Positions 21,243-29,124 of a stretch of 61,819 bases of DNA are shown here, one piece after another; the first letter of the stretch is position 1; each line of letters begins with the position of its first letter. The position numbers and the translations under genes were made by a program. Location: positions 1-61,819 of the forward strand of contig JBLNBQ010000179.1 of NCBI GenBank assembly GCA_050260095.1, read 5' to 3'. Source of the stretch: Chitinophagales bacterium (GTDB taxonomy: Bacteria > Bacillota > UBA5301 > DYFA01). The notes below the pieces were generated by a model. It was not told the origin of the DNA, ran no database searches, and saw only the letters and a list, made by a program, of their open reading frames with translations.

Positions 21243-22070
21243 ATGCTGAATAACCCAGCGGATGGGCCGATCGGCGTCTTCGACTCCGGGTTCGGAGGGT
21301 TGACGGTGGTCCAGGCGATCTGGCGTCACTTGCCTCTGGAGCATGTCCTTTACGTCGGCGACACGGCCCGCGTGCCATACGGTGGGCGGGAGCCCAAGGA
21401 AATCCGCAGCTTCAACCGGGAGATTCTCCGCTTCCTGGTCCAGGAAGGCTGTAAGCTGGTGGTTTTCGCCTGCAACACCTCTTCGGCGCTGGCCTTCGCC
21501 GAGATGGAGCGGGAATTCGACCTGCCCATGGTCGAGGTCATCACGCCTGGGGCCAAAGCGGCGGCGGCCGCCTCACGCAACGGTCGCATCGGGCTGTGGG
21601 CAACGGAGGCGACCGTGCGGAGCGGCGCATACGCCAGAGCGGTCAAGGCCCAGCGGCCCGACGCCGAGATCGTTCAGGTGGCCTGCCCGCGGCTGGTTCC
21701 CCTCATCGAGGGAGGGCGGGCGGCGTCGCCCGACGTACAAGAGGCCGTACAGGAATATGCCGGCCCGATCCGGCGAGCCGGCGTCGACACGCTCATCCTG
21801 GGGTGCACGCACTATCCCTTCCTGGCGCCTTTCATCCGGGAAGCGCTGGGCGATGGGGTCGCGCTCGTGAACCCGGCCGAGGAAACGGCCCGGCGGACGG
21901 GAGAAGTCCTGCGCCTGAGCGGGCTCAGCGCCACTCACCGGCAAGACGACCGGTTCTGCACGTCGGGCGATGCGGAGGTCTTCCAGAACCTGGGGAGCGT
22001 GTTGGCCGGCCGGCCGTTGGCGCAGGTGGAGCAGGTGGCTTTTTCCTCCCAACTCGGAGTCACCGGTTGA
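21243..22070 (+). CDS. murI: Glutamate racemase
   Basis: IGVFDSGFGGLTV, DTARVPYG, ACNTSS, LGCTHYP. Confidence 0.95.
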   Translation: MLNNPADGPIGVFDSGFGGLTVVQAIWRHLPLEHVLYVGDTARVPYGGREPKEIRSFNREILRFLVQEGCKLVVFACNTSSALAFAEMEREFDLPMVEVITPGAKAAAAASRNGRIGLWATEATVRSGAYARAVKAQRPDAEIVQVACPRLVPLIEGGRAASPDVQEAVQEYAGPIRRAGVDTLILGCTHYPFLAPFIREALGDGVALVNPAEETARRTGEVLRLSGLSATHRQDDRFCTSGDAEVFQNLGSVLAGRPLAQVEQVAFSSQLGVTG

Positions 22071-22095
22071 GGCAAGATGGGGGTAGAGGGCAGAG

Positions 22096-22533
22096 ATGGC
22101 GGTGACGACCAACCAGAAGACCATCGTGATGGGAGTCATCGGCGCCGACGTGCACGCGATCGGCAACAAGATACTGGAACATGCGTTCCGCGACGCCGGG
22201 TTCAGAGTGGTGAACCTCGGCGTCCTTGTGTCTCAGGAGGAGTTCGTACACGCGGCCATCGAGACGGCCGCCGATGTCCTGGCCGTCTCTTCGCTCTACG
22301 GCCACGGGGAGATCGACTGCCGCGGGCTCAAGGAGAAGTGCCGGGAGGCCGGGCTTGACCGCCTCCTGCTGTACGTGGGCGGGAACCTGGTCGTGGGGAA
22401 GCAAGACTGGAAGGAGACCGAGGCCAAGTTCCGCGCCATGGGCTTCGACCGCGTCTTTCCGCCGGGAACCCTGCCTGAGCAGGCCATCGCGGCGTTGCGG
22501 CGCGACCTGGGGCTCCCCGGAGGTGAAGCGTAG
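22096..22533 (+). CDS. mamA: Methylaspartate (glutamate) mutase, B12-binding S subunit
   Basis: [12 protein letters not shown] (DxH), [21 protein letters not shown]. Confidence 0.95.
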
Positions 22534-26895: not shown

Positions 26896-28158
26896 TTGAG
26901 CACCGACGTCACCATCGAACAGGTGATCCTTTCTCCCGGGCTATCAGGCTTCTATTTCGACGACCAGCGCGCTATCAAGGCCGGCGCCGAACAGAACGGG
27001 TTTTCCTATGAGGGCCAGCCGCTGACCCCCGGCTTCCGAGCGGTTCGCCAGGCCGGCGAATCCGTCTCCGTGCAGTTGGTCCTCTCCGACGGGCAGGTGG
27101 CCTACGGCGACTGCGCGGCGGTTCAGTATTCGGGCGTCGACGGGCGTGACCCGGTCTTCCTGGCCCGCGACTTCCTTCCGGTGATGGTCCAGGAAATCGT
27201 GCCGCTGCTGGTCGGGCGGGCGGCCACTGACTTCCGGCGCAACGCCGGCCTGGTCGACAAGCACCAGACCGGCACGGGCGAACGCCTCCACACGGCGATC
27301 CGCTACGGAGTGACCCAGGCCCTGCTCGACGCGGCCGCCCGCGCCCGCCACCTTACCATGGCGGAAGTGGTCGCGGCCGACTATGAAGGCTGCATCACTC
27401 CCTCGGCCCCGGTGGCCATCTTCGGCCAAAGCGGCGACGACCGCTACAACAACGCCGACAAGATGATCATCAAGCGCGCCGATGTGCTCCCCCACGGCCT
27501 CATCAACAACGTCGGCAAGCTTGGCCCTCAGGGAGAGAAGCTCGCCGACTACGTCCGCTGGCTGAACCATCGCATTCGGGAGCTGGGGGGCGAACACTAC
27601 CGGCCGACCATCCACCTCGACGTGTATGGCACCTTCGGGTTGGCCTTCGACAACGACCTGGACCGCATCGTGGGCTACATCGCCGAGCTGGAGAAGCTGG
27701 CCAAGCCGTATCCCCTGCGCATCGAAGGGCCGGTTGATCTCGGCAGCAAGCAGGCGCAGATCGACGCGTTGGCCGAACTCTGCCGGCGGCTCAGGAGCGC
27801 GGGCGTAAACGTGCAGATCGTGGCCGACGAGTGGTGCAACACCTACGAGGACGTGGTCGACTTCACCCAGGCCAAGGCGGGCGATATGGTCCAGATCAAG
27901 ACGCCCGACCTCGGCGGGATCAACAACTCCATCGAGGCGGTGCTCTATTGCCGGGCCAACGGCATGGGCGCCTACCTGGGCGGGACCTGCAACGAGACCG
28001 AACGGTCAGCCCAGATCTGCGTGCACGTCGCCCTGGCGACCCGGCCCGTCCAAATCCTGGCCAAGCCGGGCATGGGCGTCGACGAGGCGTTCGAAGTGGT
28101 CTACAACGAGATGCAGCGCACGATCGCTCTGGTGCGGGCGCGTCGCACCAGCCGGTAG
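26896..28158 (+). CDS. mal: Methylaspartate ammonia-lyase
   Basis: GFYFDDQRAIK, GDCAAVQYSG, QSGDDRY, PHGLINN, ADEWCNT, QIKTPDLG, GGTCNET. TTG start inferred from the RBS. Confidence 0.95.
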   Translation: MSTDVTIEQVILSPGLSGFYFDDQRAIKAGAEQNGFSYEGQPLTPGFRAVRQAGESVSVQLVLSDGQVAYGDCAAVQYSGVDGRDPVFLARDFLPVMVQEIVPLLVGRAATDFRRNAGLVDKHQTGTGERLHTAIRYGVTQALLDAAARARHLTMAEVVAADYEGCITPSAPVAIFGQSGDDRYNNADKMIIKRADVLPHGLINNVGKLGPQGEKLADYVRWLNHRIRELGGEHYRPTIHLDVYGTFGLAFDNDLDRIVGYIAELEKLAKPYPLRIEGPVDLGSKQAQIDALAELCRRLRSAGVNVQIVADEWCNTYEDVVDFTQAKAGDMVQIKTPDLGGINNSIEAVLYCRANGMGAYLGGTCNETERSAQICVHVALATRPVQILAKPGMGVDEAFEVVYNEMQRTIALVRARRTSR

Positions 28159-28191
28159 GCCTCGGGCCGGTCGCGGTAGGGGGGATAAGGC

Positions 28192-29124
28192 TTGTTCGTC
28201 GGGCTCGACCGGGCGGTTTACTTTGCCCCCCGGGGGCGGAAACGGCTCATGTTTCTGGGCAACCTGGTGGCGCAGCGCTACCTCAACCCGGAGGATCATC
28301 TCATCGGGCTGATCGGCGACGCAGGGGCGGGGAAATCCCTGCTCATCAGGGGAATGTTCCCCGGCCTCATCCTCACCAACGACGACGACGGGATCAACGT
28401 GCGCCCGGCGCCCATCCTGGCCGATGCCGAGGTGGGGTACTTCCGGACGCACACCTACCACCTCGACGTGCGCTTCGAGGCCGCCTTCACGCCATACCCG
28501 GTGATGGCCGCCGCCATCCAGGCCGCCCTCCGGCAGCATCGCCGGGTGGTGGTCGAGCACTTCGAACTGCTCTTTCCCACCCTCCAGATGAATGCGGAGG
28601 TGCTGATCGGGATCGGCGAGGAGGTCATGGTCTACCGGCCTGGCGTCTTTGGACCGCACCCGCAGCGCGTGGCCGATGTCGTCTTCGCCTCGCTCAAGTA
28701 CCGCAAAGCGGCCCACTCCGCGGAGGACCTGACGACCCTGGCTTTCGAGCAGTTGGGATACCCGGTCCCCGACGTCCATTCCGACGTCCGGCGGGGCTTC
28801 CTGCTCGAGTTCCCGCGCCCGCCCCGGGAGCTTGACCTCGATGCCATCGAGGCGACCGTGCGCGACTTCATCGCTCGCGACGTGCCGATATGCTACGAGG
28901 ATGACGAGCATATTAGGATTGGCGGCGTCCTTCATGCCTGTTCCGGGCCGCGCCTCCACGTCCGTTCGGCCGCGGAGATTGGCGATTTCCGGCTCATGAA
29001 GGATTTCCTCTATGATCCTATAACTCACCTGTATCTCCTGGCCGGGCTGGTCGGCGAGGCAGCCGTCCACCCGCCGGAGCCGGTGGGGCACAGCCCGGAG
29101 GAGGTTTTTCATGGAACGCCCTGA
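28192..29124 (+). CDS. P-loop domain fused to an AlaRS/ThrRS second-additional (editing-like) domain; function unknown
   Basis: [11 protein letters not shown]alker A; C-terminal AHSAEDL and [12 protein letters not shown] resemble the HxxxH/CxxxH editing motifs. Confidence 0.65.

Follow-up and report, generated by a model that had tools for sequence, protein, structure and literature searches.

The window analysed here is the whole stretch of contig JBLNBQ010000179.1, 61,819 nucleotides long, from the assembly GCA_050260095.1 (a Chitinophagales bacterium, placed by GTDB in Bacillota; UBA5301; DYFA01). It carries the peptidoglycan genes murI and murD interleaved with the genes of the B12-dependent glutamate (methylaspartate) mutase (glmS, glmL and glmE) and of methylaspartate ammonia-lyase (mal), murD being located between glmS and glmL. 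The insertion of murD is real, inherited and limited to one class-level lineage; the order MurI-GlmS-MurD-GlmL-GlmE-Mal was recovered by tblastn in all six mutase-bearing genomes of the class, which belong to three families. We regard it as likely (probability about 0.75) that all of the proteins have their canonical functions and that the locus represents a historical, lineage-specific gene-order variant of known systems.

The genome (2.69 Mb in 197 contigs, 97.5% complete; the contig has a G+C content of 67%) was searched with curated protein family models for further copies of the two wall genes, a check that had been proposed in the initial annotation of this DNA. TIGR01087 returned seven Mur-ligase-like stretches, among which the operon gene alone exceeded the cut-off (384 bits; runner-up 124 bits), and TIGR00067 detected one murI. 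Both genes are single-copy by this profile search: no second murD or murI was found in the 97.5%-complete genome, and each of the 11 genomes of the class contains exactly one murD above the cut-off. The division and cell wall (dcw) cluster is located on contig C102 (L009 470-17465) and comprises rsmH, spoVD, murE, murF, mraY, ftsW/spoVE, murG, murB, murA and ftsQ, and further on ftsA and ftsZ. In the textbook order of this cluster murD lies between mraY and ftsW, whereas here the remaining dcw genes are present, the cluster is complete but for murD, and ftsW/spoVE directly follows mraY. Because the genome has one murD and the dcw cluster has none, the essential murD of the organism is the gene inside the mutase operon. 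Among the 80 closest MurD loci of public genome contigs (many of them short; tblastn, E <= 1e-10, query coverage of 50% or more), mraY was adjacent to murD in a single case, and a free-standing murD therefore seems to be usual in these lineages.

Gene content, junctions and promoter of the locus

Between 19.1 and 30.5 kb the genes for the amidase, murI, glmS (mamA), murD, glmL, glmE, mal, the gene at 28192-29124, rph and rdgB lie on the plus strand, and each named gene scored above the cut-off of its curated NCBIfam equivalog and showed the expected Pfam domains. The features are as follows:

19111..21117, plus strand: Amidase_3 N-acetylmuramoyl-L-alanine amidase (Cu_amine_oxidN1 + AMIN + Amidase_3), first gene of the conserved housekeeping block; PF01520, 3.3e-50
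21192..21200, plus strand: predicted promoter-like element TGATATAAT of the extended -10 type, located before murI, read from the sequence
21243..22070, plus strand: murI, glutamate racemase; TIGR00067, 238.7 bits (cut-off 146.65)
22096..22533, plus strand: glmS/mamA, B12-binding subunit S of glutamate (methylaspartate) mutase; TIGR01501, 205.2 bits (cut-off 135.8), and NF002612, 218.2 bits
22533..23900, plus strand: murD, GTG start; TIGR01087, 384.4 bits (cut-off 211.95)
23902..25323, plus strand: glmL/mutL, mutase accessory (reactivating) protein, GTG start; NF040745, 592.6 bits (cut-off 475)
25360..26811, plus strand: glmE, catalytic subunit E of glutamate mutase; TIGR01503, 753.6 bits (cut-off 390.1)
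26872..28158, plus strand: mal, methylaspartate ammonia-lyase; TIGR01502, 594.6 bits (cut-off 286.15)
28192..29124, plus strand: conserved 310-aa protein with a predicted TsaE-like P-loop and AlaX-like domain; homologues and fold model
29111..29890, plus strand: rph, RNase PH; TIGR01966, 368.9 bits
29757..30458, plus strand: rdgB, XTP/dITP diphosphatase (coordinates of the longest open reading frame; homology begins at about residue 37); NF011397, 252.4 bits
30520..30871, plus strand: three tRNA genes followed by the first strong terminator (30845-30871); Rfam tRNA matches and terminator scan

The run murI-mamA-murD-glmL-glmE-mal on one strand behind the amidase gene had been proposed in the initial annotation, and the profile scores confirm every one of these identities. 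In the interval assigned to this run (21243-29124) the genes are as they had been named, except that the last 0.9 kb (28192-29124) does not belong to mal and is a separate conserved gene that had been omitted. The S and E subunits of the mutase and GlmL are above their equivalog cut-offs, with the DxHxxG B12-binding motif present in GlmS (as GADVHAIG). The tight joining of murD on both sides, likewise described previously, can be read directly: the glmS stop codon (TAG, 22531-22533) overlaps the GTG start of murD (22533-22535) by 1 nt (TAGTG), and the in-frame GTG of glmL at 23902 follows the murD stop codon (TAG, 23898-23900) after a gap of 1 nt. The G+C content at third codon positions (GC3) is uniform over the genes of the locus (0.83-0.90).

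The TGnTATAAT promoter reported before murI is found as TGATATAAT, at a distance of 42 nt from the ATG of murI, which is preceded by AAGGAG as ribosome-binding site, and this promoter-like element is retained in both of the other genomes of the same family (G001 and G002). The window contains two matches to TGNTATAAT compared to 0.03 expected, a number that was reached in none of 100 shuffles. In a simple scan of 21117-30458, no terminator-like site was detected between genes (the lone match, a weak 5-bp stem at 24507-24519, lies inside glmL) and no sigma-70-like promoter was detected inside the operon; in Rfam searches of 17000-32000, only three tRNAs exceeded the gathering threshold, with no riboswitch or other RNA element. 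The genes from murI to mal thus probably form a single co-oriented, tightly packed and co-transcribed unit. Transcription would start from the extended -10 promoter and extend at least from murI to mal, and probably to rdgB, and translational coupling would be expected at the glmS/murD and murD/glmL junctions.

In the surroundings of the locus, the tRNA genes after rdgB have their own sigma-70-like promoter match (30471-30500; 10/12, with TG) and a strong terminator behind them, and the second match to TGNTATAAT (at 35723) lies upstream of tig. The regions 5551-16991 and 35723-44645 contain a glutamine synthetase gene (minus strand), NiFe hydrogenase genes together with hyp maturation genes, and tig-clpP-clpX-lon. 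The domain scan of the open reading frames of the window also identified gerA-type germination genes and a gene for a small acid-soluble spore protein (SASP).

Gene order across the class and the phylum

Gene order was compared in a GTDB-based collection comprising 11 species genomes of the same class and a phylum sample of 401 genomes. Within the class, glmS scored above the cut-off in six of the 11 genomes (three of family f1, including the genome studied here, two of f2 and one of f3). The flanks of the locus are also shared: the other two f1 genomes and G003 have the amidase gene upstream and rph-rdgB downstream, and in G007 the amidase gene is present upstream of murI and the locus ends before rph. 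Five genomes of the class are devoid of the mutase (four of f4, one of f5). Four of them show the order amidase-MurI-MurD-Rph-RdgB with gaps of tens of bases, and the fifth (G006) shows MurD-Rph-RdgB up to the end of its contig. Since the mutase-less genomes keep the pair in place, murI-murD-rph-rdgB is the housekeeping block of the class, and organisms that are unable to make methylaspartate employ this MurD orthologue at the same position.

Outside the class the situation is different for the two wall genes. In the phylum sample glmS was found in 74 of the 401 genomes, 68 of them from outside the class, and in none of these 68 was murD located within 27 kb of glmS. The conservation of the mamA-murD-glmL order, which the initial annotation had suggested to examine across taxa, thus amounts to all six mutase-bearing genomes of the class and none of the 68 elsewhere in the phylum. 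In 23 of the 68, representing ten families, glmS is immediately preceded by murI in the same orientation, and 21 of these 23 genomes have no other murI; in several of the non-class genomes with examined neighborhoods, rph-rdgB follows the mutase cluster. Adjacency of murI and murD without the mutase was encountered in G041 and G210. Among the 80 closest public MurD loci, mutase genes were present in one (L010), which is probably the same record as G002:C23.

The two halves of this arrangement each have a known counterpart. For the first, Bacillota such as B. subtilis possess a murI(racE)-...-rph-rdgB housekeeping block, and its flanks (amidase-murI...rph-rdgB) are kept in the genome studied here, in its class relatives and in several other families; the difference is that in this class murD belongs to the block and that three families have the mutase genes placed in between its members. 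It had been surmised from the single sequence that the mutase genes were inserted into a murI-rph-rdgB arrangement, and the flanks of the class relatives support their location inside an older amidase-murI-...-rph-rdgB block. For the second, the clostridial glutamate-fermentation cluster comprises glmS/mutS-glmL/mutL-glmE/mutE-mal plus genes for mesaconase and for citramalate lyase (Kronen & Berg 2015, PMC4682846). The four core genes are common to both and have the same relative order, whereas here murD is placed between glmS and glmL, the mesaconase-type genes and the AtuA/DUF4387 pair (see below) are located on other contigs, and no CitF was found. In the same paper, MurI is listed among the genes drawn in glutamate-fermentation clusters (legend to its Fig 4). 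We found no open-access paper that describes murD inside a mutase operon.

Several variants of the locus were encountered in the phylum sample. In family f9, the alignment of five murI-like genes (of G144, G267, G292, G342 and G366) with the racemase model is limited to its initial ~129 positions. Those of G144, G267, G292 and G366 are adjacent to glmS, and that of G342 is on another contig than glmS. G014 and G244 each have two murI genes, one of them beside glmS. A specialised racemase paralogue is a possible interpretation of this pattern in f9, G014 and G244. G047 (L120 8414-14510) shows the order MurI-GlmE-like-HgdB-like-BcrAD ATPase-metallo-beta-lactamase-Rph-RdgB, without matches for glmS, glmL and mal, and in G030 (L108 4005-7936) the three extra genes of G047 follow mal; the arrangement in G047 gives the impression that another kind of module with GlmE occupies this locus. 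In G018 a GerM-type gene (Germane domain; L117 6953-7963, minus strand) lies between mal and the AtuA-like gene and is another housekeeping/sporulation gene interleaved with the mutase cluster.

Wall enzymes, the methylaspartate pathway and competing explanations

MurD of the window contains the three domains MurD-like_N, Mur_ligase_M and Mur_ligase_C and aligns over its full length with solved MurDs (3lk7, 8.8e-73; E. coli MurD entries, 5.9e-57). It carries GSSGKTTT, NHLDQH, AKKHIY, NDSIATT, GGYDK and SPACASYDMFNNFEERG, which align with the matching stretches of 3lk7 and 8dp2. In an alignment of 85 MurDs, 30 rows of which were viewed, the six embedded MurDs equal the non-embedded Clostridia-type proteins in GSxGKTTT, GGNIG, NHLD.H, AK, NDSIAT(T/S)P, GGYDK and SPACASYDMF.NFE.RG. 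The motifs that had been noticed as belonging to the D-Glu site (GGYDK and SPACASYDMF..F) are therefore kept in the same form as in non-embedded MurDs; the assignment of the motifs to this site follows the E. coli residue numbering (T321, K348, S415 and F422). MurI has a solved glutamate racemase as its best match in the PDB (3hfr, 4.2e-63), and the two catalytic cysteines attributed to it are present in the motifs ACNTS and GCTHYP, with ACNT and GCTHYP kept in all nine MurIs aligned, whether mutase-linked or not. MurE exceeds the cut-off of the L-Ala-D-Glu:mDAP (meso-diaminopimelate) ligase equivalog (598 bits; cut-off 373). Judged from their sequences, MurD, MurI and MurE would have canonical substrate specificity.

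A quick maximum-likelihood tree of MurD was computed from 35 sequences (6 embedded, 5 from the class and 24 non-embedded, L011-L034, with L035-L089 and the duplicate L010 excluded). The embedded MurDs and the MurD of the mutase-less G006 formed one clade (support of 98 in the Shimodaira-Hasegawa-like approximate likelihood ratio test, SH-aLRT), and the four f4 MurDs were placed on a long separate branch. A divergent MurD paralogue was ruled out by the motif comparison and by the placement among ordinary Bacillota MurDs. Xanthomonas uses MurD2/MurL as an alternative route of D-Glu into the stem peptide; both systems depart from the usual entry of glutamate through MurI and MurD, but here MurI is canonical and MurD groups with ordinary Bacillota MurDs.

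The remainder of the methylaspartate pathway is not encoded at the locus. As stated in the initial annotation for mesaconase and citramalate lyase, no member of the fumarase/mesaconase or citrate/citramalate-lyase families was found among the 46 open reading frames of the window that were scanned (12 + 34). The clusters of other families in the phylum continue after mal with an AtuA-family protein (PF07287, identical with DUF1446) and DUF4387, with the P-loop gene just before rph, and in G018 both subunits (alpha, beta) of a class I fumarase follow mal in the same cluster. In the genome studied here, the AtuA/DUF4387 pair is located on contig C40 (L123 2996-6412, minus strand), beside a GntR/FCD regulator, the only HpcH/HpaI-family aldolase-like protein of the genome (260 aa), a 2-hydroxyacid dehydrogenase and a LarA-like protein. 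C158 (L124 7905-9322, minus strand) encodes the two subunits, alpha and beta (Fumerase, Fumerase_C), of a class I fumarase, which are 54-58% identical to the cluster-linked pair of G018; they constitute a putative mesaconase. No match to CitF (PF04223), by which a CitDEF-type citramalate lyase was to be recognized, was found in the 97.5%-complete genome, and a canonical citramalate lyase seems to be absent. According to PMC4682846, E. coli likewise is without a canonical citramalate lyase, and DUF1446 is noted downstream of mal, as in the clusters of the other families of the phylum. No paper on DUF4387 was found in the open-access literature.

Under the preferred reading each enzyme would catalyze its textbook reaction, and both the wall pair and the B12-dependent catabolic module would be ordinary. 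MurI would convert L-Glu to D-Glu and MurD would add D-Glu onto UDP-MurNAc-L-Ala, while GlmSE (with GlmL) and Mal would convert L-Glu to mesaconate in the catabolic direction. The most economical history has three steps, the direction of which we infer: the mutase operon would have resided for long between murI and rph-rdgB in the phylum; murD would then have joined it between glmS and glmL in the ancestor of the class; and in two families (f4 and f5) the mutase genes would later have disappeared through deletions that necessarily left the essential murD intact. A possible course of events is also the reverse, in which the mutase inserted in two pieces around murD. An order with an essential single-copy gene inside the operon is hard to change, which would explain its conservation. 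The data suggest that the functional link between the wall and the mutase genes consists only of the shared glutamate pool, and hence of shared expression.

Several observations weigh against this reading. Co-transcription was deduced solely from spacing, overlaps and missing terminators, and identical motifs do not prove substrate specificity. The embedded MurDs share two clade-specific changes outside of the D-Glu site as assigned above (PHRLE in place of EHR.E, and HLDQH in place of HLD[VIM]H). The quick MurD tree contains a trichotomy without resolution besides the long f4 branch and does not settle the polarity of events. Without CitF, the downstream catabolic route is not fully accounted for. 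Finally, conservation of the order in six of six genomes over three families, with junctions that overlap or are separated by 1 nt, could reflect selection for coupled expression rather than inertia.

This last point leads to an alternative that we consider unlikely, namely that the enzymes are canonical and the order itself is adaptive; it corresponds to the second proposal of the initial annotation, in which the mutase route supplies or balances glutamate for wall synthesis. Expression of murI and murD would have to increase along with that of a pathway which consumes L-glutamate or produces 3-methylaspartate, an analogue of glutamate and aspartate, and translational coupling would secure the supply of D-Glu and its ligation during glutamate fermentation. 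Besides the junctions and the conserved order, it is favored by the fact that murI comes first in the mutase operon in 29 of the 74 genomes with glmS; 21 of the 23 such genomes outside the class have no other murI. However, murI is located elsewhere in 45 and murD in 68 of these 74 genomes, so that coupling is not needed for the pathway; the mutase-less relatives keep murI and murD adjacent, and related genomes are non-independent samples.

It is improbable that the pathway operates in the anabolic direction, with mesaconate and ammonia giving methylaspartate and then L-Glu, which would feed MurI and MurD. The reactions of Mal and of the mutase are both reversible, which would permit such a flux, and no PF00285 citrate synthase match was found in the 97.5%-complete genome. 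Against this stand a glutamate dehydrogenase (GDH), three loci with glutamate synthase domains, two Iso_dh-family genes and three aconitase-family loci, and also the clusters of other families, which carry mesaconase-type genes typical of the catabolic route (PMC4682846). Because GDH and glutamate-synthase-domain genes exist, the mutase route is not needed as the only source of glutamate; as the sole source it was set aside, with the Iso_dh-family and aconitase-family genes taken into account as well.

Very doubtful, in our opinion, is the proposal that the sole MurI/MurD pair of the class was built into the mutase operon because a D-amino acid derived from 3-methylaspartate occupies position 2 of the stem peptide, at least during glutamate fermentation, or in a milder form that the cluster serves as a safeguard against 3-methylaspartate. 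The first version would amount to a chemotype isobaric with normal peptidoglycan; in the second, co-expressed MurI, MurD and the AlaX-like protein would protect wall synthesis and tRNA charging. For both versions, gene order is the only positive support.

Hardly credible is the stronger claim of the initial annotation, a new peptidoglycan chemotype in which the mutase would make an isomer of 3-methylaspartate that the MurI homologue epimerizes and MurD attaches at position 2 of the stem. What speaks for it is the gene order, together with the status of these genes as the sole murD and murI of the genome and the two clade-specific substitutions in MurD; in addition, we found no open-access paper that ties 3-methylaspartate to peptidoglycan composition. 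It is contradicted by mutase-less relatives, which possess this murI-murD pair at the same locus, by the single clade that the embedded MurDs form with the MurD of a mutase-less genome, by D-Glu-site motifs identical to those of non-embedded MurDs, by the cysteines of MurI and by the canonical MurI and MurE (the latter above its equivalog cut-off). Methylaspartate is one carbon shorter than Glu between the carboxylates, and MurE would therefore have to change too. A further point against the claim is that the genome encodes a class I fumarase and the AtuA/DUF4387 pair elsewhere, genes that in other families come after mal. The initial annotation had itself named, as findings that would speak against it, an arrangement unique to this genome and mesaconase and citramalate lyase encoded elsewhere; mesaconase-like genes do occur elsewhere in the genome, a canonical citramalate lyase seems to be absent (no CitF found), and the arrangement is shared by six genomes.

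A chimeric contig that joined murD into the operon, conceivable in a draft genome of 197 contigs, is extremely improbable in view of the same order in five other assemblies (G001, G002, G003, G007 and G004) and the uniform GC3 across genes.

The last gene of the cluster and the meaning of the locus

The gene at 28192-29124 encodes a protein of 310 aa with an N-terminal Walker A P-loop (GDAGAGKS) and without a match to any Pfam or NCBIfam family. It is 51-83% identical in relatives and has 2441 homologues at E <= 0.001, among which none of the 120 listed carries a precomputed Pfam domain; their names are inconsistent (‘alanine-tRNA synthetase second additional domain-containing protein’, ‘lantibiotic ABC transporter’, TsaE). 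An AlphaFold model built with 30 sequences reached a mean predicted local distance difference test (pLDDT) score of 81.5. Comparison of this model with the PDB by Foldseek gave modest matches to AlaX/AlaRS editing domains (E about 1e-4, template modelling (TM) score 0.30-0.34 on the query) and to the P-loop ATPase TsaE/YjeE (1htw, 2.7e-4; 1fl9; 6n9a_E). The model thus suggests a protein that is TsaE-like in its N-terminal and AlaX/AlaRS-editing-like in its C-terminal part.

The distribution of this gene follows that of the mutase. In the phylum sample it was found in 65 of the 74 glmS-bearing genomes compared to 19 of the 327 genomes lacking glmS (kin are not independent in these counts), and in 56 of the 65 it lies downstream of glmS in the same orientation, at a distance of at most 25 kb. 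Both of the glmS-lacking carriers with examined neighborhoods (G029 and G042) have a GlmE-like gene nearby. The mutase cluster of most relatives ends with this gene, whereas the mutase-less genomes of the class do not have it at the position near rph. We speculate that the protein might proofread tRNAs or otherwise handle 3-methylaspartate, a non-protein amino acid, where cells accumulate it, and its cluster membership and its absence from the mutase-less genomes of the class make such a role directly testable.

If the conservative reading is true, the locus is a documented case of essential wall genes locked in a catabolic operon. For annotation this would mean that murD is not missing from these genomes and merely lies outside dcw, and the order with murD inside the mutase operon can serve as a synteny marker for one class-level lineage. 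The TsaE-like/AlaX-like protein, a regular last member of the mutase cluster that is gone together with the mutase in the class, may hold more potential. If the coupling is adaptive, the locus would be of greater significance and would show how amino-acid fermenters protect their supply of D-Glu while burning glutamate.

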